Origin: an uncultured Flavobacteriales bacterium
GTDB lineage: Bacteria; Bacteroidota; Bacteroidia; Flavobacteriales_D; CAJJDF01
Length of the DNA stretch: 64,000 nt
Reading direction: 5' to 3'
Assembly: GCA_937129365.1 (NCBI GenBank)
Contig: CAKZNB010000049.1
Span: 133,498 to 197,497, forward strand
In this document: positions 10,854 to 64,000 of the stretch, piece after piece
How positions within the stretch are numbered: position 1 is the stretch's first letter
Layout: each line of letters starts with the position of its first letter
The notes under the pieces: model-generated
Databases searched by the model: none
What the model was told of the DNA's origin: nothing
What the model saw: the letters and a program-made list of their open reading frames with translations, nothing else
Program-made: the position numbers and the translations under genes

Positions 10854-12653
10854 TTGAATAAAATCCACATTGTCTTAAGACCATTAACCAAAGTTGAAAA
10901 CGAAAAATTAGTATTTAATTTAGAGGTTAATGACAGGGTTATTTCAGTTGATGAATCTTATTTAGAATTTAGTAAAGTTGAGTTGATTGAGGTTCCTACT
11001 CAAGTCAAAAAAGACATACTGGATAATTGTTTTGCTGAGGTTCTTAATTTTCCAACATCTAAATTAGATGGAGTTGAGGTTAAAGAAAGATTTAAATTTA
11101 AAGAGATAAACTATTGGTACTATTTTAAGTTTTCCGTTTTCAATACTTATTTTCCTGTAGAGTTTGATAGTCAAATTATTGAATATGTTTTGAGTGAATC
11201 AAGTTTTTTAGTTGAAGATGAATTCATCATCTATTCTTTGAATAATTTGAATCGTGAAAAATCAGTGTGTATAACACCAGCTTCAAAAAAGAAAAAATCA
11301 GGAGTATTAAACTTAATTGGGTTTTCAGTTGTATTCTTCTTTAGGTTTTTAATAGGATTTTTTCAATCCATTTTTATATTTAATAAAACACATGTCTTTT
11401 TAAAATGGCCCTTTGTCAAATCTAAAATTATTAACCCTGACGATATAACAAAGAAAATATATGGGAATATCATTGTTGAGTATGCTACACTAGAAATGAA
11501 CAAAAATAAAAAGTTTGCTTTCGTTTCAGATGTTTTTTTACCAAATAAATCTGGCGAAAAATATAAACTGAACCAAGTGATTAACCGTTATACAATGAAA
11601 TCTTTTTATTTAGAGTTTTTTCTTGTAATATCCCTTTTTAATCCCTTTTTCTGGTTAAAATTCAGGAAATTTTATCAAAAAATGAAATATGCCTTTTTAG
11701 TAAAAGATAAGGAATCTAAATCGAACGTAATTTTCAAGATTTTTAATTCTAAAAAGAAAATGATTTATGTTCTTTTTTGGAGAGAAGAAAGTTTTAAAAC
11801 TCTATTATTTTTCAAGAAAAAATTAAAAACATTAGGTACAGTATCAGAATATGATTTTAATAATGCCTCTCTTTATAGAGCAGCTTTGGTTAAAGGATTA
11901 AAAGTTGTTGCTGTTCAGCACGGAACTGTTCATGATAGACATATGCACTATGTTTTTACTCAAAATGATAAAGATTCGGTTTTGATTCCAACTTCGACTA
12001 TTGTTTGGGGAGATTATTGGAAAGAGGTTCTAAAAAAAAACTCTATTTATACGGATGATAATTTAGAAGTTTTAGGTCAATTAAGGACTGATGTGATTCA
12101 TAAAATTCAAGATAAATATCCTGCGAGTTCTGATTTTTCTATTTTGTATGTCTCCAGTGGAATTGAATTGGGACTAGATACGAGAGGAATGATGATAAGA
12201 GAAGTAATGAAGTTATGTAATTTGTTTCCTGACATTAGGTTTTTCGTTAGACCCCATCCCAATGAATTTGACGCAGAAGAATATTACAGTAAAATTGCTA
12301 ATGAATATGGTGTTACAAACTATACATTAGACACTGATGATTTGTATGTTAGTTTGAATCGGCATCAGGTTGTGATGATTTATGATAGCACAGTGGGAGG
12401 AGAGGCTATATATTTTGACAAAACAGTAATTATTATGGATTATCTGGATAATGATAAATCTAACTACTCTGTTTATTCTTCAATTTTTCACAAAGGGAAA
12501 AATGTGAATGAGATAGCAGCCTTAATAGCTAAGATTAAAAATAAAGAGTTAATCAGCGATAAAGAAGAGCGTGCAAAATTCATTAAAGAATATGTATACA
12601 AGATTGATGGTGAAACAACAAAAAGGTATGTAGACTTTATTGAAAAAAGTTAA
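10854..12653 (+). CDS. Hypothetical membrane-associated protein; candidate GT-B-like glycosyl (nonulosonate?) transferase
   Basis: 599 aa, TTG start. Central hydrophobic segments. The C-terminal half has VQHGTVHD and RPHPNE (HP-type) motifs reminiscent of capsule/sialyl-type transferases. The function is inferred only. Confidence 0.5.
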   Translation: MNKIHIVLRPLTKVENEKLVFNLEVNDRVISVDESYLEFSKVELIEVPTQVKKDILDNCFAEVLNFPTSKLDGVEVKERFKFKEINYWYYFKFSVFNTYFPVEFDSQIIEYVLSESSFLVEDEFIIYSLNNLNREKSVCITPASKKKKSGVLNLIGFSVVFFFRFLIGFFQSIFIFNKTHVFLKWPFVKSKIINPDDITKKIYGNIIVEYATLEMNKNKKFAFVSDVFLPNKSGEKYKLNQVINRYTMKSFYLEFFLVISLFNPFFWLKFRKFYQKMKYAFLVKDKESKSNVIFKIFNSKKKMIYVLFWREESFKTLLFFKKKLKTLGTVSEYDFNNASLYRAALVKGLKVVAVQHGTVHDRHMHYVFTQNDKDSVLIPTSTIVWGDYWKEVLKKNSIYTDDNLEVLGQLRTDVIHKIQDKYPASSDFSILYVSSGIELGLDTRGMMIREVMKLCNLFPDIRFFVRPHPNEFDAEEYYSKIANEYGVTNYTLDTDDLYVSLNRHQVVMIYDSTVGGEAIYFDKTVIIMDYLDNDKSNYSVYSSIFHKGKNVNEIAALIAKIKNKELISDKEERAKFIKEYVYKIDGETTKRYVDFIEKS

Positions 12654-28665: not shown

Positions 28666-28857
28666 CTAACGGTTGGTATAAGAAACGTAGGGCAGGGTAA
28701 AAGTACTATCGTTTCGGTTTATTACTTAGCTAAATATAAATATTTTGCTTTTATCTTATCGATTTTAAATGCCAAATTTTATATTTGGCGGACTTTGTAA
28801 ATAAACACAGACCTTTAGGCAAGCCAAGAATGCCCTATGTTTTTTATACATTGTTAG
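28666..28857. repeat. attC-like structured palindrome, element A (192 bp)
   Basis: + strand CTAAC(28666-70)...GTTAG(28853-57). Long imperfect stem of 5 bp, a 5x3-nt internal loop, 6 bp, G-T, 4 bp, G-T, 7 bp. Conserved core hairpin GCCAAAT-N5-ATTTGGC followed by GGAC. Confidence 0.6.
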
Positions 28858-29934
28858 CTAAAGTACTTTTTTCGTTAATATTGTATATAATCTATGGTTG
28901 ATGTAATAATTTCCTGTTCCTAATTTCTGTTTTATTAGGATTCCATCTTTCGATAATCTATTCAAATAGTTTCCTGCTGTTATTCTTGATACTCCTAAAT
29001 CTCTTTCTATAAATTCAATTTTAGTGTATGGATGTTGAAATAAATTATTCAATAAATCTTGACTATAAAATTTATAATTATCTCTAATTAAGTGTTTGTA
29101 CTCAAGCATTAGAACTTGAATTTCTTTAATTAATATAATTGTTTGTTTAGCAGTTTGTTCAACTGCTTTGATGATATAAATTAACCAATTTTCCCAATTA
29201 TCTGTAATTCTAACTTCTTGTAATAATTCGTAGTATTTCACCTTATTTTGAATAATGTATCGACTCAGGTAAAGTATTGGTAAGTCTAGTAAATCTTTCA
29301 TTACAAGGTATAGTACATTAATTATTCTTCCTGTTCTTCCGTTTCCGTCATAAAATGGATGAATACTCTCAAATTGAAAGTGAATAATAGCCATTTTAAC
29401 AATTGGGTCAAAATCAGATAAATCATCATCATTGATGAATGTTTCAAGATTAGACATTAAGTTCTTAATAGTGTCATAGTCTTGAGGAGGAGTGTATACA
29501 ACTTCTCCCGTTGTTGCATTTTTTAAAGCAGTACCTGGAACTTTTCTAAATCCAGCATTGTTTTTTTCAAGCTCAGATTGAATTTGAATTATATCGTTGT
29601 TTGTTAATATATTTCTCTTGGAGATTAATGAGTAGCCAGTTTTTAATGCTGATATATAATTTTGAACCTCTTTAGCATCCAATGACTTCAATCCATCTAA
29701 GTTTAATTCAGCTTTGTAAAGATCATCGTGAGTTGTAATGATGTTTTCAATTTCAGAACTATCTTTAGCTTCCTGAAGTCCTAAAGTATTGATTAGTATA
29801 CTCTCGTTAGGAATACTTGAAACTAAACCTTTTAATTCGGCTAGTGCTCTGTGAGCTTCGTTAAGCTTTTTTAAAACACGTTTTGTTTCAATATCTTTTG
29901 TAAGAGGTAATTTTTCAAGCTTGAAATTATTCAT
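28858..29934 (-). CDS. Fic-family protein (AMPylase-type, N-terminal inhibitory helix, C-terminal winged helix)
   Basis: 358 aa. Catalytic HPFYDGNGRTGR, N-terminal SSEIEN matching the (S/T)xxxE(G/N) auto-inhibition motif, C-terminal GVSRITAGNYLNRLSKDGIL wHTH. Confidence 0.92.
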   Translation of the reverse strand: MNNFKLEKLPLTKDIETKRVLKKLNEAHRALAELKGLVSSIPNESILINTLGLQEAKDSSEIENIITTHDDLYKAELNLDGLKSLDAKEVQNYISALKTGYSLISKRNILTNNDIIQIQSELEKNNAGFRKVPGTALKNATTGEVVYTPPQDYDTIKNLMSNLETFINDDDLSDFDPIVKMAIIHFQFESIHPFYDGNGRTGRIINVLYLVMKDLLDLPILYLSRYIIQNKVKYYELLQEVRITDNWENWLIYIIKAVEQTAKQTIILIKEIQVLMLEYKHLIRDNYKFYSQDLLNNLFQHPYTKIEFIERDLGVSRITAGNYLNRLSKDGILIKQKLGTGNYYINHRLYTILTKKVL

Positions 29935-29936
29935 AA

Positions 29937-30056
29937 TGATAAGAAAATCTATTTTTCTTTACAAAGATAGTTCTTTTGATAAGAAATATTAATTTTCTTT
30001 ACATATAAAATATATGTGATAAGATTTTAAGTTAATCTTTACATTCAATTTTTCTA
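29937..30056. repeat. Three exactly phased 40-bp direct repeats (iteron/operator-like) abutting the Fic start codon
   Basis: Units are 29937-76, 29977-30016 and 30017-56. Each is TGAT-AAGAxx-N7-xxTCTT-TACA on the + strand. The inner 6-N7-6 inverted repeat is kept by paired changes in unit 3 (AAGATT/AATCTT versus AAGAAA/TTTCTT). Confidence 0.8.
29962..29969 (-). promoter_or_regulatory. Candidate -7 box TATCTTTG (TAnnTTTG) for the Fic gene, inside repeat unit 1
   Basis: Exact consensus match on the minus strand about 28 nt upstream of the Fic ATG. Confidence 0.35.
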
Positions 30057-30075
30057 GGGTGCTTCCGTATTTTAG

Positions 30076-30272
30076 CTAACGTCTCGGCTATGATTAGTAC
30101 GGGAATTAAAAGTAGTGAACTTTCGATTAAGCACTTAGCCAAAACTTTTTATTTTGTTTTAATTTTTTCATTTTAAAAGCCAAATCAAAAGATTTGGCGG
30201 ACATTATAAAAACACACTAAACTTTGGATTAAACACTAAAACCCGTATTAATTATAGCCATTGTTGTGTGTA
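30076..30272. repeat. attC-like structured palindrome, element B (~195 bp)
   Basis: + strand CTAAC(30076-80)...GTTGTGTGTA(30263-72). Same stem architecture as element A but with different stem sequences. Same core hairpin GCCAAATC-N4-GATTTGGC followed by GGAC. Confidence 0.6.
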
Positions 30273-30276
30273 GTAC

Positions 30277-31695
30277 TTAGTCTTTACCTTTAATTATTCT
30301 AACATCATCTTGATAGTTATATCTAATAGCACCTTTTTCCAGTTTCATACCTTGGTTTCCAGTTATATCATCTGTAATTGGCCCAACATTATGCAACATA
30401 AAATCGAGATGATTGTATCTTTCGTTTGCAACAAGATTTGAGAAATTTATTTCATCAGAATAAAATCTTTGATTAGAACTTGTCTTTATCTCAATAACAC
30501 CAAAGGTATCTAAACTTGTGTTTTTGAATTCATAATCGTGTTCCCAAAAATAAGTTCCACCTTTTTCCATATGAAGTTTTCCACCTGATTTGCCATCCTT
30601 TCTTTTTGGAAAGCAGATAAATTTTGTTCCTACTTTCTGAGTTTGATTTGGTTTAATACACAAAGGGAATTCTGTATCTGCGTAAAGACTTTCTATCGGA
30701 AAGAAAAATACTAATTGCTTTGAAGTTAGTACTTCTATACTTTCTATATAAACATTCTGCTTACCATCATTAATAATGCTGATTTCGATTATAGGTTCAG
30801 TTATTTTTTGTTTTTTTCTATTCAGTAGTAAATCAATTTTCTTAGGTTCTTTAAACCAATGAAATTTATTTTTGTGTTCAAAGATTTGATGTCTTAAAAT
30901 AATTTTGTCTTTATTATTTATGGGTATCTTTTCTGAGTTTTCCTCTACATTAATAAAAATCTCCTGTGTTACAGTTAAACCGTTATGGTCTTTGAACTCC
31001 TTAAGATAATTAGAAAAAGGTGGTAATTCTGGACTTAATGTATTCAACATAGCAGACAACAACATCGCAATCTCGAAATTATTTTCTTGTGAAATAGATT
31101 CATAATAAAATGAAGATTTTGCTAATTGTCTTGATTCTTGAAAGGCATAATTACGTTTTGTATGACTCCAGTATCCTTTTCCAATGACAAGTAAGACATC
31201 AATAGCTGGATGAGTATGAAATTCCGAATCATATTTTTTTATACGTTCTATTTCATTCTCTTTTGTCATATCGGATGCATAGGCAAAAAGAACTCTAATC
31301 GGTCTTTTTTGACCTTTGGAATCAAACTTTTTAAGAAGGTTAAATTTCTTAATAGTACTTTTTATTTCCGTTGCGTTTATTGTTGATTTTACTTCAAAAG
31401 CGTAGCGACAACTTTCAATGGGAAAAACTCCAACATTTGAGCTTAACATAGCTTTAGGAAGTGAATCCTCGTTATATATAATTAAATCTGTTTCTGCTGA
31501 TAAACTTCCATTGCCATCGGCAATTTTTCCATTTCCTATATTCCATTTGCGAGGAAGGTATTTTAAGAAAAAGTCACTTAGATGTTCTTCTTTAACTTTT
31601 CCTTTAAGCCCATCGTGTTCTATTGAAGAACCTAAATTAGCAGATTCTACTAAAGTATTTATGTTGTTCAATAAGACTTTTAATACAGGTGTCAT
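30277..31695 (-). CDS. Hypothetical protein with N-terminal PD-(D/E)xK nuclease-like domain (DUF6602-like) and unknown C-terminal domain
   Basis: 472 aa. D70 (ETDLIIY) ... E101-V-K103 (AFEVKS) spacing typical of the restriction-endonuclease fold. The C-terminal ~240 aa have no motif I recognise. Confidence 0.6.
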   Translation of the reverse strand: MTPVLKVLLNNINTLVESANLGSSIEHDGLKGKVKEEHLSDFFLKYLPRKWNIGNGKIADGNGSLSAETDLIIYNEDSLPKAMLSSNVGVFPIESCRYAFEVKSTINATEIKSTIKKFNLLKKFDSKGQKRPIRVLFAYASDMTKENEIERIKKYDSEFHTHPAIDVLLVIGKGYWSHTKRNYAFQESRQLAKSSFYYESISQENNFEIAMLLSAMLNTLSPELPPFSNYLKEFKDHNGLTVTQEIFINVEENSEKIPINNKDKIILRHQIFEHKNKFHWFKEPKKIDLLLNRKKQKITEPIIEISIINDGKQNVYIESIEVLTSKQLVFFFPIESLYADTEFPLCIKPNQTQKVGTKFICFPKRKDGKSGGKLHMEKGGTYFWEHDYEFKNTSLDTFGVIEIKTSSNQRFYSDEINFSNLVANERYNHLDFMLHNVGPITDDITGNQGMKLEKGAIRYNYQDDVRIIKGKD

Positions 31696-31887: not shown

Positions 31888-32412
31888 TCAATCTTTTTTC
31901 TTCCTTTTCCTCCATTTAAAATTTCGGTTGTTTATCAGAACTAATCTAAGTGAAACAAAAAGAGTGTTGGTGTTTTTAAAGGTATCAAAAGGGGTTAGAA
32001 TATTATACCCAATCTGTAGGTGAGCCAAAGAAATTTTGTACCCAATGGTAGGGGAAAGCCCAATTCGATTTTGGTCAAAGTTGGATTTAAACACCAAGTT
32101 TCCTCCGTAGGTTAAATCTAACCTGCCTTTCTTTTGCCAATACCCAGCCGAAAATCCCAAAATGTTTTCTGTAAGGTTGTAATCAAAACCTACATTAAAA
32201 GCATGAGTTGTAGGTTTTATCAATTTCACTGCCTTTCTCTGAAACTCATAACCTAATTCTAAGTTATTGTATTTTCCTCTTTGTAACCCAATGTAAGGAC
32301 CACTTTTGGTGATTTTTACCAAGGGGTCTTTTTTGTATAAACTAGCTTCTAACCCTTGAGAAAAAGAATTAGTGCCGAGTATAGCTAAACAGATAAAAAA
32401 GAAAATTCTCAT
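31888..32412 (-). CDS. Hypothetical outer-membrane beta-barrel-like protein
   Basis: 174 aa, signal peptide, alternating beta-strand pattern, basic C-terminal tail. Confidence 0.5.
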   Translation of the reverse strand: MRIFFFICLAILGTNSFSQGLEASLYKKDPLVKITKSGPYIGLQRGKYNNLELGYEFQRKAVKLIKPTTHAFNVGFDYNLTENILGFSAGYWQKKGRLDLTYGGNLVFKSNFDQNRIGLSPTIGYKISLAHLQIGYNILTPFDTFKNTNTLFVSLRLVLINNRNFKWRKRKKKD

Positions 32413-59687: not shown

Positions 59688-59824
59688 CTAAATCATCCTT
59701 TTGGGTGATATATTGAATAGCTTTTTTATAATAACTTTGAGTTTATTAAATATAGTTAATTGGCAACCATAAGTAATTGACAATGGTTATATTTACAACT
59801 TACAACAACAGTTTTTAATTTCCA

Positions 59825-62800
59825 TTGAAAAAAACTATTAAGCATATAATTTTTCTGTTATTTGGAATTCTTTTGTTTTTTAATAACAATAGTTTTTCAA
59901 CCCATTTAATGGGTTCAACACTTTCTTATTCATGTATTGGGCCAAATCAATACACTGTAACTTTTAAAGCTTATAGAGATTGTGGAGGAATAGCAATGCC
60001 GTCTTCATTTTTAATCTCATACAGTGGTTGCGGAAACACTGGTAGTTTAACTGCAACACAAATAAGTAGTGCTGATATTACACCAGTTTGCCCAAGCAAA
60101 TCTAGTAATTGTGGCGGAGGAACTGGACCAATAGGAGTAGAAGAATACATTTTTCAAGGAACAGTAACTGTTCCTGCTGGTTGTTCAAATATTTTATTTT
60201 CTGTTTCATCTTGTTGCCGAAATGGAAGTGTCACAAATATTACAAGTCCAAGTACAAATGGGTTTTACACAAGCTCATTACTTAACAACACTATTAGTCC
60301 TTGCAATAGTTCTCCAATATTTGCCTCAGCACCAACACTTTTTGCCTGTGTTAATCAACCAGTTTCTTTTCAACAATTAGCAACCGACCCTGATGGAGAT
60401 GTTTTGGTATATTCTCTGACCAACTGTAGGCAAACTACAGGAACTAGTGTAACTTATGGGGGCGGTTTTAGTGGAGCCTCTCCATTAACAACTCCTGTAA
60501 CTATAAATCCAAGTACAGGAGATTTATCTTTCACACCTAATTCGATTCAAATCGCAACAGTTTGTGTACTTGTAGAAGAATTTAGAGGTGCGGTTAAAAT
60601 AGGAGAAATAGTCCGAGATATGCAGATTGTAGTTCGAAACTGTTTCAACGCTTTACCTTCACTATCTGGAATAAATGGTGCATCTGGTGTCTATAGTACC
60701 AATATTTGTGAAGGAGCGCCACTTTGTTTTAATGTAAATGCTTCAGATACTAATTCTGCAGATAATCTAACAATGACTTTTTCTGGAATTATACCTGGGT
60801 CAACATTTACGCAATCTGGAACTGGTAATAATAAAACAGGAACTTTTTGTTGGACTCCACCAATAGGTTCTGTTGGTTCATATGTGTTTTCTGTTTTAGT
60901 TAATGATGATGCTTGTCCTATCATTGGGCAAAACTCAAAAACTTATACAGTTAATGTAGTTGCAAATTCCAATCCACCTATTGTTGCTAGTTCTGATGTA
61001 ACATTATGCGAAGGTAATTCTACAACACTTACAGCCACAAATGTAGCTCCAACAATAACCTGGTCGCCCTCATTGGGGCTCTCAACAACATCTGGAACTT
61101 CAACAACTGCAACTCCACTTTCAACTACAACTTATACAGCAACTGCAATTTATGCCGATGGTTGTCGATCCTCGGATGATGTAGTTTTAACTATTAATCA
61201 GGCTCCTACCACATTAATTACTCCCACATCTGCTAATGTCTGCCCAGGAGGTAATTTTACATTAACAGGCACAACAAATAGTACTGGAATGAGTTTCAGC
61301 TGGACTAGGTTAAACCCTTTTGCTATAGGGTTAGGGAGTGGAACAGTTTCTGGAACTTCTTCTACAATAGTTGTAACTGTCCCAACTACTCCTGGCACAT
61401 ATAATTTTAGATTAAGAGTCACAAATCCTATCTCAGGCTGTGTTTCTGAAGTTACCGTTCCACTAACAGTAGGTTCCGCTCCTCCATTAGGTAGTTGTGT
61501 CAATATATATGTTTCTCCTTCAGGATCATCTTCAGCAGCTGGTTCACAAGCAAACCCCACAAATTTGCCTGAAGCTCTTACTAGGAGTGCTTGTCAAAAT
61601 GCAGTTATAAAAATGGCTATGGGAACTTATAATTTCAGTAACCCTATCAATATTCCAAGCTTTGTAACTATTGAAGGAGGATTTAATCCTACTACTTGGG
61701 TAAAAACGAGTCAAGCTGGTGCCACTACAATAAATAGAAATACATTAAACCCTGAAGGAGTAACTAACGCTCGGAGGCTAGTTATGTTTTATGGGAATAG
61801 TGTTTCTGGATTTAGATTTCAAGACATTACAATAACTACCTCTGCTGCAAATCAAAGTGGCATGTCCACTTACGGAGTGCATTTAACATCTTGCTCTAAT
61901 TATGATTTTGTAAGAACGCAAATATTACCAGGAAATGCTTCTGCTGGTCAAGCAGGAGGAACTGGCCCAACAGGTGGATTTTCTGGTGGTACCGGACAAC
62001 ATGGGTCCAACTTCTCTACTTCTACTTCGGCTCAGGTAAATGGTGGAGCAGGAGGAGCTGGATGTAATAGTTCGGGCTCAGGAGGGAATGTATGTACCGC
62101 TCCAGGAATAAACAGGGGTTGTAATGGTTTTTCAGGGGGAGGGTCAGCCCTTTATTGGCGAGGAAGTGGTGGTGGTGGTGGTGGTGGTGGTGGTAACGAA
62201 GATAGAGATGGAGGAAGAGGAGGTTATGGAGGATCAATTGCTGCTGGAGGTGGGTTTGCAGGTAGGTCTCAAAATAATCAACCAGGTCCTGGACCAGGAT
62301 GTAGAAGTTTTGGAAACTGGTTTGGGAATGAAACCGGATGCATAAGTTCTGTATCATCAACTAGCACTGAATCTGGAAGATGTGGTAGAACTGGTATAAA
62401 TGGACAAAATGGGACTATAGGAGTTCTTGGTAGTGTAGGTACTTATGGAGTATTTTATACACCAGGTGGACAAGGTGGACAAGGAGGAAGAGGTCAAGGT
62501 GGTCAAGGCGGGTCAGGAGGAGGAGGAGGTGCAGGAGCTGATGGGTTTTTATGTGCTGATGGTACAGGTGCAGGAGGAGGAGGAGGAGGAGGAGGAGGCT
62601 GTGGAGGATATGGTGGTCTTGGTGGTCGTGGTGGTGGTGGTAGTTTTGGATTGTATTTAGTTTCTAATGGGACAAACGGGATCGTTTCACAAAGTTATAT
62701 TAATGCAGGAACAGCAGGTGCTGGTGGAAATGGAGGAACTGGTAGAATAGGTACAAATGGAGGCCTTGGAGGGAACGGAGGAAATGGAGGTACAAGTGGA

Positions 62801-64000
62801 GGTTATGGAGGAGATGGAGGAAGAGGAGGAAATGGAGGAAGAGGGGGGAATGGGGGGAATGGAAGAGCTGGTGTTTCAATTGATGTTTATAGGGTAAGTG
62901 GATCTTTATTAACAACTCAGGTTACTACTTTTAATCTTGCTGGTCAATCTACTATCAATGTTTCTAATGTTAATTGTACCCAGACTAATGTAAATTACTC
63001 AACAGCCTCTCCAAATTCATGGGACTTTGATAGGGTTACTAATTTTGCAACACCAGCAACATCTGGAGCAACAACCTCTGCAAATACACAATATTCTCAA
63101 ATAGCTAGGTATACAGTTTCTAGTGGTGCTGATATTTATGAAGGCTTTCATAATATTTCTTTTACTGGTTCGGTTGCTCCAGAAATATCAACAAGTGCAG
63201 ATTCTATAGGTGTTGATACATTTCAACTTTGTCAAGGAGATTATGCAACTTTTGCAAGTGTTTCTTCTGGATTAACTTATATCTGGAATTTTAATGGGGC
63301 AATTGCAAATCCTGGATCTGGAATTCAAGTAGTTCCTTCCACACAATTTAATACTCCAGGATTTTATACCATCACACTAAGAACAACAAACGATTGTTGT
63401 GGGCTTTCTCCTACCAAAACAATTTATCTTTATGTAGATGTATTACCAACTGTATTTGCATCTGGAGCTGGATCTATTTGTGAAGGGGATAATAGAACTT
63501 TAAGTTTATTTGGTTTAACTGCTAGTGATAGTGTTGTTTGGTCTCCCATTACAAGTATTGTTTCTTCAACATCAACATCAACATCAAAAACTATTACGGT
63601 TAGTCCGTCAACAACTACAACCTATACTGCATCTATTTATACAAAAATAACTACAAATGGCGTAACAAGATTAAGTTGCCCTATTAGTCGACCTCTTACA
63701 ATAACAGTGAGTCCTAATCCTATTCTTAGCATGTCATCAACACAAGTTATTTGTAATAATGATGGTACTTCAACAGCAACTATAAGTTCAGGAGGAGGTT
63801 TATATAATTTTGTATGGTCAAATGGAGGCACCACATTTAATACAACTACATCAACCATTACAGGTTTAGGTGTAGGAAAATATGTTGTAACTGCGACAAA
63901 TACTATTACAGGTTGCTCTGTTACAGATTCTGTTGATGTTCTTCCCTCAGCTTTAGCTCCTACTATAGTTCTTCAAAGTTCTACACCTGCAACTTGTGGT
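59825..64000 (+). CDS. Giant cell-surface adhesin-like protein, 3' end beyond window (at least 1392 codons); not in the supplied ORF track
   Basis: Frame 2 is open from the stop at 59816-18 to the window end. TTG start gives signal peptide LKKTIKHIIFLLFGILLFFNNNSFS. N-terminal HLMGSTLSY..YTVTFKAYRDCGG motif typical of Bacteroidota type-B-sorted giants. Ig-like repeats, beta-helix-like YVSPSGS..GTYNF, glycine-rich tract. Confidence 0.85.
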   Translation, partial: MKKTIKHIIFLLFGILLFFNNNSFSTHLMGSTLSYSCIGPNQYTVTFKAYRDCGGIAMPSSFLISYSGCGNTGSLTATQISSADITPVCPSKSSNCGGGTGPIGVEEYIFQGTVTVPAGCSNILFSVSSCCRNGSVTNITSPSTNGFYTSSLLNNTISPCNSSPIFASAPTLFACVNQPVSFQQLATDPDGDVLVYSLTNCRQTTGTSVTYGGGFSGASPLTTPVTINPSTGDLSFTPNSIQIATVCVLVEEFRGAVKIGEIVRDMQIVVRNCFNALPSLSGINGASGVYSTNICEGAPLCFNVNASDTNSADNLTMTFSGIIPGSTFTQSGTGNNKTGTFCWTPPIGSVGSYVFSVLVNDDACPIIGQNSKTYTVNVVANSNPPIVASSDVTLCEGNSTTLTATNVAPTITWSPSLGLSTTSGTSTTATPLSTTTYTATAIYADGCRSSDDVVLTINQAPTTLITPTSANVCPGGNFTLTGTTNSTGMSFSWTRLNPFAIGLGSGTVSGTSSTIVVTVPTTPGTYNFRLRVTNPISGCVSEVTVPLTVGSAPPLGSCVNIYVSPSGSSSAAGSQANPTNLPEALTRSACQNAVIKMAMGTYNFSNPINIPSFVTIEGGFNPTTWVKTSQAGATTINRNTLNPEGVTNARRLVMFYGNSVSGFRFQDITITTSAANQSGMSTYGVHLTSCSNYDFVRTQILPGNASAGQAGGTGPTGGFSGGTGQHGSNFSTSTSAQVNGGAGGAGCNSSGSGGNVCTAPGINRGCNGFSGGGSALYWRGSGGGGGGGGGNEDRDGGRGGYGGSIAAGGGFAGRSQNNQPGPGPGCRSFGNWFGNETGCISSVSSTSTESGRCGRTGINGQNGTIGVLGSVGTYGVFYTPGGQGGQGGRGQGGQGGSGGGGGAGADGFLCADGTGAGGGGGGGGGCGGYGGLGGRGGGGSFGLYLVSNGTNGIVSQSYINAGTAGAGGNGGTGRIGTNGGLGGNGGNGGTSGGYGGDGGRGGNGGRGGNGGNGRAGVSIDVYRVSGSLLTTQVTTFNLAGQSTINVSNVNCTQTNVNYSTASPNSWDFDRVTNFATPATSGATTSANTQYSQIARYTVSSGADIYEGFHNISFTGSVAPEISTSADSIGVDTFQLCQGDYATFASVSSGLTYIWNFNGAIANPGSGIQVVPSTQFNTPGFYTITLRTTNDCCGLSPTKTIYLYVDVLPTVFASGAGSICEGDNRTLSLFGLTASDSVVWSPITSIVSSTSTSTSKTITVSPSTTTTYTASIYTKITTNGVTRLSCPISRPLTITVSPNPILSMSSTQVICNNDGTSTATISSGGGLYNFVWSNGGTTFNTTTSTITGLGVGKYVVTATNTITGCSVTDSVDVLPSALAPTIVLQSSTPATCG
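62168..62191 (+). repeat. In-frame trinucleotide microsatellite (GGT)8 encoding Gly8
   Basis: Read directly; in frame with the 59825 ORF. Confidence 0.95.
62573..62596 (+). repeat. In-frame trinucleotide microsatellite (GGA)8 (plus GGC) encoding Gly9
   Basis: Read directly; in frame with the 59825 ORF. Confidence 0.95.

Follow-up and report, generated by a model that had tools for sequence, protein, structure and literature searches.

The 64,000-nucleotide stretch analyzed here (hereafter the window; positions 133,498 to 197,497 of contig CAKZNB010000049.1, from an uncultured Flavobacteriales bacterium) carries an open reading frame (ORF) on its reverse strand, 30277..31695 (-), with an ATG start and a TAA stop codon at 30277-30279, that encodes a 472-aa protein with a DUF6602 domain. 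We conclude that this protein is very probably a nuclease of the NucC fold, NucC being a DNA endonuclease that is activated by cyclic tri-AMP (cA3). The family to which it belongs, hereafter the fusion family, appears to be a NucC scaffold without the cyclic-nucleotide switch, joined to a domain that is private to these proteins among 1.84 billion representative sequences. Our best reading, to which we assign a probability of about 0.5, is that the gene encodes a self-contained, single-gene anti-phage DNA endonuclease of the abortive-infection type, in which a β-sandwich module stands in place of cyclic-nucleotide gating.

The gene is real and under purifying selection, since 13 homologues align with the 472-aa protein from the same start codon and the ratio of nonsynonymous to synonymous substitution rates (dN/dS) is 0.076 overall relative to the Lacinutrix himadriensis orthologue, which shares 86% amino-acid identity. 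By segment, dN/dS was 0.044 for residues 1-231, 0.052 for residues 232-298, and 0.138 for residues 299-472, and therefore all three parts of the protein are kept by selection. The local G+C content of ~29% is like that of the rest of the window. A first-pass annotation, made by a model from the letters of the window, had described a PD-(D/E)xK nuclease-like N-terminal domain fused to an unrecognizable C-terminal domain; each sequence string quoted in it is found in the ORF, with D70, E101, and K103 as placed there.

Nuclease domain and ligand switch

The first-pass annotation had pointed to a resemblance to the DUF6602 domain, correctly: Pfam DUF6602 (PF20247) matches residues 23-123 at E 1.3e-23 over profile positions 5-103 of 104, with 83.3 bits relative to the curated gathering cut-off of 27, and a precomputed PF20247 annotation is present on all homologues. 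PADLOC profiles returned a Cas-associated PD_DExK family as the best match to the 472-aa protein (2e-31), together with two NucC effector profiles (4.5e-17 and 3.4e-16). When the single sequence was searched against the PDB, NucC proteins were the only relatives (Serratia NucC, 7zgv, 1.6e-10), while a profile that included single-domain relatives matched Serratia NucC at 3.4e-21, with similarity over residues 6-199 and with alignments to other NucC chains reaching ~residue 200. Structure prediction gave a consistent picture, as the AlphaFold2 model has a predicted local distance difference test score (pLDDT) of 70-90 across residues 1-230, and the top 14 Foldseek matches in the PDB were 14 NucC chains (best E 7e-12). 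These matches comprise 225-257 aligned columns on targets of ~240 residues, with template modeling (TM) scores of 0.58-0.71 normalized to NucC. Because the alignments span the whole of their NucC targets, residues 1-230 are predicted to form a complete NucC fold, i.e. more than the first 120 residues. The first-pass annotation was thus right that residues ~25-230 contain a nuclease, but the domain fills all of residues 1-230 and has specifically the NucC fold. It had also named the lack of a predicted nuclease fold as evidence against its proposal; AlphaFold2 and Foldseek together give such a fold.

The predicted core has the order αβββαβ (helix 28-44, strands 51-59, 69-75, and 96-106, helix 108-122, strand 133-141), with D70 opening strand β2 and E101-x-K103 lying within β3. 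The codons of these three residues (nt 31486-88, 31393-95, and 31387-89 for D70, E101, and K103, respectively) specify a triad that is invariant in 13/13 family members as well as in 37 wider relatives, which, along with the DUF6602 match and the predicted fold, bears out the PD-(D/E)xK assignment of the first-pass annotation. Together, D70, E101, and K103 would make up an intact active site that depends on Mg2+. The motif T69-D70-x30-E101-V102-K103 corresponds to I72-D73-x30-E104-A-K106 of NucC, residues 72-106 of which align without gaps. In NucC, the active-site motif IDx30EAK consists of D73, E104, and K106 (bioRxiv 10.1101/694703). An N-terminal helix is likewise present and conserved, and aligns with the cytoplasmic NucC α0 helix; the N-terminal helix of NucC mediates the packing of two trimers into a hexamer (bioRxiv 10.1101/694703).

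The manner in which NucC is switched on provides a direct comparison for the 472-aa protein. In NucC, cA3 binds in a pocket at the trimer axis, over which a gate loop then shuts; this leads to trimer-to-hexamer assembly, which pairs the active sites for double-strand DNA cleavage (bioRxiv 10.1101/694703). R53, Y81, and T226/V227 hold the ligand, and the gate loop around it is latched by H136 and Y141; mutation of any of these residues abolishes activation (bioRxiv 10.1101/694703). In a gap-free alignment, the position of NucC R53 is occupied by K50 in the 472-aa protein and by K or Q across the family, while that of Y81 is occupied by S78 here and by S or G across the family, and a Tyr occurs at the latter position in none of the 37 wider relatives. 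Opposite the gate loop of E. coli NucC, SLPIPH136AGGTY141PAKPLI (NucC residues 131-149), the alignment shows an 11-column deletion throughout the fusion family, together with loss of the H136/Y141 latch. The stretch that links the catalytic lysine with the SD motif is 38 residues long here vs 52 in E. coli NucC (14 fewer). The sequence alignments to NucC end at ~residue 205, short of T226; an invariant T219-L220 lies in a similar place and is a candidate counterpart.

Searches for a source of the signal were also negative. A PADLOC scan of the window (51 ORFs of ≥110 aa) matched no CD-NTase or Cas10, and its AAA+ and other matches were all single hits. No cyclase was present at the Lacinutrix, Nonlabens, Christiangramia, or sister-contig loci of the fusion family, and residues 232-472 matched no CARF, SAVED, STING, or similar sensor domain in Pfam or PADLOC. 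With R53 and Y81 replaced, the H136/Y141 gate loop missing, and no cyclase encoded within ±30 kb, the 472-aa protein is, judged from its sequence, neither a NucC orthologue nor part of the cA3-responsive NucC family.

The C-terminal module and the wider DUF6602 relatives

The C-terminal ~240 aa had been described as beta-rich and unrecognizable by sequence, and both parts of this description held. In Pfam, NCBIfam, PADLOC, PHROGs, and PDB sequences, nothing matched residues 232-472 significantly, a PDB profile search with the C-terminal half likewise gave zero matches, and only sub-threshold Pfam hints of immunoglobulin (Ig)-like domains were seen (MOV-10_Ig-like, 0.0033; DUF1573, 0.086). An exhaustive hidden Markov model (HMM) search, in which a profile of the C-terminal halves was compared with 1.84 billion representative proteins, recovered just four: two known family members, a new full-length member of 480 aa (P0026, E 6.6e-23), and a protein of 976 aa with Ig repeats of the ASH/DUF1573 type that was matched at E 6e-4 over profile positions 68-127 only. 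The β-sandwich domain is thus private to the fusion family. A domain-only AlphaFold2 model (predicted TM score 0.67) is an all-β sandwich with a pLDDT of 70-88 for residues 299-451, flanked by a linker (residues 232-298) and a tail (residues 452-472) in which the pLDDT is <50. The linker is rich in Lys and Glu and poorly conserved in sequence, yet its dN/dS is as low as that given above, while the P0010-P0013 subfamily has a different tail or none.

Checking AlphaFold models of both halves with Foldseek, as the first-pass annotation had suggested, was informative for one half: the nuclease half leads to NucC, while the C-terminal half matches only generic Ig-like/E-set sandwiches in the PDB and among the viral models of BFVD (E ≥ 8e-4, TM 0.2-0.5), such as ApaG, FixG-related proteins, TRAP-β, the arrestin/TXNIP N-domain, and the AP2 appendage. 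The C-terminal core is therefore modeled as a generic Ig-like β-sandwich and is predicted to be no enzyme. Several positions of the sandwich (LTS, FF, FxFPK, GG, HxYxF, and YSxE) are kept across subfamilies of 25-30% identity, and because of these motifs and a dN/dS of 0.05-0.14, the C-terminal module appears to be functional. Two more specific proposals for it were rejected. A DNA-binding role judged from charge is unsupported, as the β-sandwich varies in net charge from -4 to +7 across the family and is often negative. A C-terminal sorting domain for type IX secretion was considered because of the flavobacterial host and the C-terminal β-sandwich; NCBIfam gave no family at E ≤ 1 (TIGR04183/TIGR04131) and the N-terminus has no signal peptide.

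The full-length architecture is very rare, as it forms about 14 clusters among roughly 15 billion proteins, and its named members (Lacinutrix, Christiangramia, and Nonlabens) all belong to the Flavobacteriaceae. A full-length-alignment scan of 185,579 species, with one genome per species, found full-length copies in 2 species, and two scans of metagenome contigs for further genomic contexts found none. Six metagenome contigs encode the identical 472-aa protein.

The closest relatives of the N-terminal domain are single-domain proteins of ~250-270 aa from Proteobacteria and Klebsiella prophages (L017-L024 and H1 in our numbering), with 30-35% identity over residues 2-228. They share the GKGYW, MNTL, and SD motifs and the catalytic triad with the fusion family and are also without equivalents of R53 and Y81, but the loop that follows their catalytic lysine is still of NucC length, and a C-terminal module is lacking. 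Their genes, too, lie in defense islands, where they adjoin QatABCD, DRT, PifA, ThsA, and similar systems, and no shared cyclase was seen near them among the 25 of 73 matched families listed. When 37 relatives were divided by the length of the segment between K103 and S141 (the lysine-to-SD segment), 19 had a short segment of 34-38 aa and all 19 of these had at least 57 extra residues; the remaining 18 had a long, NucC-like segment of 45-61 aa and 17 of them were single-domain proteins, the exception being P0019. The short-segment group consists of the fusion family, P0014, P0015, and a 336-366-aa group (L010/L025/L026). From these sequences, loss of the gate-loop equivalent would seem to go with gain of an extra module across the DUF6602 relatives, a pattern that is suggestive only.

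The 336-366-aa proteins represent a second DUF6602 architecture (L010-L012 from IMG/VR contigs, L025 from Giesbergeria, and L026 from Halarcobacter), encoded on contigs classed as viral. In these proteins, the catalytic lysine is followed by the same short loop as in the fusion family, 70-90 residues are inserted into the hairpin that links the GKGYW-like and NTL motifs, and the C-terminal tail (~60 residues) is of another kind.

Genomic setting and proposed function

In the window, the DUF6602 gene lies between housekeeping genes, with dodecin, trmD, and rplS on one side and rsmE, a thioesterase gene, and recR on the other. Its immediate neighbor is a SoFic-like Fic gene on the same strand (28858-29934; PADLOC SoFic, 5.6e-119), from which it is separated by a 342-bp spacer with a terminator-like hairpin, GCCAAATC-TTTT-GATTTGGC, then TTTTAAAA, located about 80 nt past the DUF6602 stop codon. 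The hairpin forms in both the minimum free energy (MFE) and centroid folds and narrowly fails the T-run rule of terminator prediction. By blastn, a sister contig (L007) matches the window at 98.6% identity from 33192 down to 30074 and has no homology thereafter; in place of SoFic, it has two genes with PDDEXK_GAPS4 and GAPS4b_N hits, although the GAPS4 label derives from precomputed Pfam annotation (PF26115 and PF26110) that was not reproduced with local Pfam and PADLOC scans. On a second sister contig (L006), homology ends at 28841, just past SoFic, where an M43 peptidase gene with PKD domains follows vs a GNAT gene in the window. Because L007 exchanges SoFic for GAPS4 at 30074 and L006 diverges at 28841, the SoFic region is a strain-variable slot, bounded by these two positions, in which defense cassettes are exchanged. 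The first-pass annotation had given the DUF6602 gene its own cassette beside Fic, and the hairpin after its stop codon as well as the homology break between the two genes agree with this, so that, by sequence comparison, the gene is an independent module with its own terminator-like hairpin.

No conserved neighbor gene was found among six loci of the fusion family, which agrees with the earlier claim of a single-gene effector, and no homologue was found in a conserved metabolic operon, a setting that the first-pass annotation had named as contrary to its proposal. A defense neighborhood, for which it had proposed to examine the homologues, is present in the population of the window and in Christiangramia; around the Nonlabens and Lacinutrix copies there is no PADLOC match. 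The Christiangramia copies lie amid HigBA, TIR/ThsB, HEPN, SLFN, M78/DUF4411, DUF3800, IS110, and integrase genes, and IS110 transposase, integrase, and rve transposase genes flank some family copies. On the contig that carries P0007 (L033), a 475-aa protein encoded at 669-2096, two genes upstream of the family member, has weak hits to Polβ-type nucleotidyltransferases and a Y_phosphatase3 domain. Nucleotidyltransferases can make signaling nucleotides; because this protein was seen at no other family locus, it is probably unrelated to the family member.

The variable, defense-rich DNA in which the gene lies supports a role in defense, and we consider it somewhat more likely than not that the gene is a defense gene. 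A role of the C-terminal domain as a sensor or regulator is more tentative, with the odds somewhat against it. If the best reading is correct, the linker and β-sandwich would take over control from the ligand and gate loop, and the β-sandwich module would hold the nuclease inactive until it meets a phage-derived cue, most likely a protein. By analogy with NucC, the cue would permit oligomerization and so activate the nuclease, with non-specific DNA cleavage and abortive infection as the expected outcome. A bolder and rather doubtful version holds that the protein is a signal-free NucC, in which the β-sandwich directly recognizes a phage protein and replaces cA3 in driving trimer-to-hexamer assembly, and that loss of the loop with gain of a module is a general route from a second-messenger effector to an autonomous one-gene immune sensor.

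Several observations weigh against the best reading. A sensor role for the β-sandwich is argued only by exclusion because the domain has no specific structural relative. In the second half of the nuclease domain, KGYW, R181, Y183, Y198, and NTL are very strongly conserved, and this region may hold a different small-molecule pocket. The correlation between loop and module could correspond to perhaps three or four independent evolutionary events, and it is because these are so few that the pattern is suggestive only, while about 14 clusters are too few for a statistical test of defense-island enrichment. The Nonlabens and Lacinutrix copies have unannotated hypothetical ORFs as neighbors. Lastly, the two copies in Christiangramia sp. 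LLG6405-1 (CP159330; L015 and L016), which are ~87 kb apart and 100% identical, both have the same 1-nt frameshift at ~10940-10960 of each locus, yielding ORFs of 319 aa and 163 aa; this is either a recently duplicated pseudogene or a systematic assembly error.

Two alternatives, both unlikely, come next to the best reading. The protein might be a restriction-like nuclease that is constitutively competent, with the β-sandwich and basic linker not sensing infection but recognizing a target, e.g. modified phage DNA as in type IV enzymes, many of which pair a PD-(D/E)xK domain with a β-rich reader domain. The relationship of NucC to type II restriction enzymes, the presence of Bse634I and SgrAI among the secondary fold matches, and the conserved linker lysines K282, K286, and K294 would all fit this idea, but they have to be set against the unconserved and often negative charge of the β-sandwich, its lack of similarity to SRA, YTH, PUA, or other known modified-DNA readers, and the absence of a methyltransferase gene adjacent to the DUF6602 gene in the window. 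Equally, the gene might belong to no anti-phage system and be either a nuclease of mobile DNA (serving addiction as a toxin, exclusion of competitors, or recombination) or a decaying passenger. The transposase and integrase genes beside some copies, the frameshifts in both Christiangramia copies, the lack of recognized defense genes around the Nonlabens and Lacinutrix copies, and the great rarity of the family are what such a gene might display; however, purifying selection acts upon all three parts of the protein, all recovered strains of the population of the window stably keep the gene, its immediate neighbors are swapping defense cassettes, and there is no conserved antitoxin-like partner.

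We regard as less probable still that the protein is an orphan second-messenger effector, responding to a nucleotide signal (not necessarily cA3) from a cyclase encoded elsewhere in the genome, with the β-sandwich as an accessory. The NucC fold is complete, the conserved residues of its second half could line a ligand pocket, NucC homologues serve CBASS (cyclic oligonucleotide-based antiphage signaling systems) and type III CRISPR, and the best PADLOC match is Cas-associated. This explanation is opposed by the replacement of two of the three side-chain contacts to cA3 that mutagenesis has proven essential, by deletion of the ligand-enclosing gate loop, by the lack of a cyclase in the 64-kb window or common to the loci of the relatives, and by the movement of the gene as a single cassette. 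A two-gene system with the adjacent SoFic-like protein, suggested by the adjacency of the genes on the same strand and by a Fic gene about 3 kb from the distant DUF6602 relative P0015, is effectively refuted, as the 342-bp spacer contains the terminator-like hairpin, L007 keeps an identical DUF6602 gene with GAPS4 instead of SoFic beyond the break at 30074, and no Fic gene lies beside the Lacinutrix, Nonlabens, Christiangramia, or L033 copies, so SoFic is a separately swappable cassette and not a conserved neighbor.

Positions of the gene, its parts, and adjoining features in the window
Feature	Position	Strand	Basis
Whole gene, 472-aa NucC-like nuclease/β-sandwich fusion	30277..31695	-	ORF list, 13 homologues, dN/dS 0.076
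Residues 1-231, predicted complete NucC-type PD-(D/E)xK endonuclease domain (DUF6602), including N-terminal α0-like helix (residues 3-24)	31003..31695	-	Pfam, PADLOC, PDB profile, AlphaFold2, Foldseek
Catalytic motif T69-D70-x30-E101-V-K103	31387..31488	-	Invariance, gap-free NucC alignment, predicted strands
Residues 123-133, short loop replacing NucC gate loop	31297..31329	-	Alignment, loop-length table
Residues 232-298, Lys/Glu-rich linker	30802..31002	-	pLDDT <50, dN/dS 0.052, alignment
Residues 299-451, family-specific Ig-like/E-set β-sandwich domain (predicted)	30343..30801	-	AlphaFold2 domain model, Foldseek, profile search
Residues 452-472, variable C-terminal tail, probably disordered	30280..30342	-	pLDDT <50, alignment
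Terminator-like hairpin	30179..30198	-	Read from sequence; MFE and centroid folds
Boundary of strain-variable slot	30074	.	blastn of L007 vs window

Some further features of the window were noted. Directly upstream of the DUF6602 gene, on the same strand, a 174-aa ORF (31888-32412, -) has an N-terminus like that of a signal peptide and a C-terminal end that is strongly basic, and it matches no Pfam family. It always accompanies the DUF6602 gene in the population of the window, where every recovered strain carrying the identical 174-aa protein also has the DUF6602 gene, and it is absent from the other family loci. On the opposite side, in the 3' region of the DUF6602 gene (30086-30259), a 23-nt inverted repeat (30086-30108 and 30237-30259, 83% complementary) encloses both the terminator-like hairpin and a direct repeat of 18 nt. 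As folded RNA, this region has z = -3.5, and it is kept in the GAPS4-bearing strain at 93% identity; it was rejected as a repeated mobile element, as the window has one copy of it and unrelated loci have none. Rfam had no hits in the window. Directly upstream of the SoFic start codon, at 29937-30003, are two 27-nt direct repeats 40 bp apart, TGATAAGAAAATCTATTTTTCTTTACA and TGATAAGAAATATTAATTTTCTTTACA, which are 85% identical and each partly palindromic; they resemble operator sites in tandem, to which the winged-helix C-terminal domain of SoFic might itself bind. Far from this locus, an ORF of >1,390 aa at 59819-64000 (+) continues past the window end. Its start resembles a signal peptide, and extensive tandem repeats rich in glycine (GGxGG type; periods of 18, 33, and 39 nt) raise the local G+C to 0.47 and the GC skew to 0.52.

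Relation to known systems

The DUF6602/NucC domain family and defense by single-gene nucleases are both already known, and the fusion gene is one of many candidates consisting of a known effector plus an unknown domain, so the claim made here is a modest one. In the literature that was searched, there was no report of a fusion to the private β-sandwich, of a documented loss of the cA3 switch, or of the pattern of loop loss with module gain. Effectors of CBASS and type III CRISPR are usually treated as subordinate to a cyclase. Should the β-sandwich prove to be the sensor of the trigger, the protein would offer a compact, 472-aa model for the rewired allosteric control of an oligomerization-dependent suicide nuclease, and it would add a candidate defense gene for the marine Flavobacteriaceae, whose phage defense has, to our knowledge, received little experimental study. 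The pattern of loop and module gives a simple criterion by which to sort DUF6602 proteins, from their sequences, into probable signaling-type and autonomous types.

Among the systems to which the protein can be compared, the type II restriction endonucleases NgoMIV, SgrAI, and Bse634I share its PD-(D/E)xK core and were found as secondary Foldseek matches (E about 1e-2), but they have no sequence similarity to it and follow a different oligomeric logic, and the DUF6602 gene has no cognate methyltransferase. This group has been named as structural relatives of NucC (bioRxiv 10.1101/694703). A closer parallel is Damona, a single-gene DUF6602 system from the chromosomal integron of Vibrio cholerae that was reported to protect against phage (bioRxiv 10.1101/2024.07.02.601686). 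Compared by its published description only, Damona is alike in that its DUF6602 domain is matched by the Cas PD_DExK and CBASS small-endonuclease profiles as well, and in being a single gene without a cyclase. It differs in residing in Vibrio integron cassettes and Acinetobacter prophages rather than in Flavobacteriaceae; nothing points to a β-sandwich domain there, and our exhaustive search found that domain only in the fusion family. NucC itself, the cA3-activated effector whose homologues act in both CBASS and type III CRISPR (bioRxiv 10.1101/694703), has throughout the ~230-residue fold that is predicted here, the same D-x30-ExK spacing, the SD motif, and the N-terminal helix (PDB 6p7o, 6q1h, 6uxf, and 7zgv). 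It differs in having R53, Y81, the H136/Y141 gate loop, and an accompanying CD-NTase or Cas10, whereas the fusion protein is without these and instead carries 240 residues of linker and β-sandwich.

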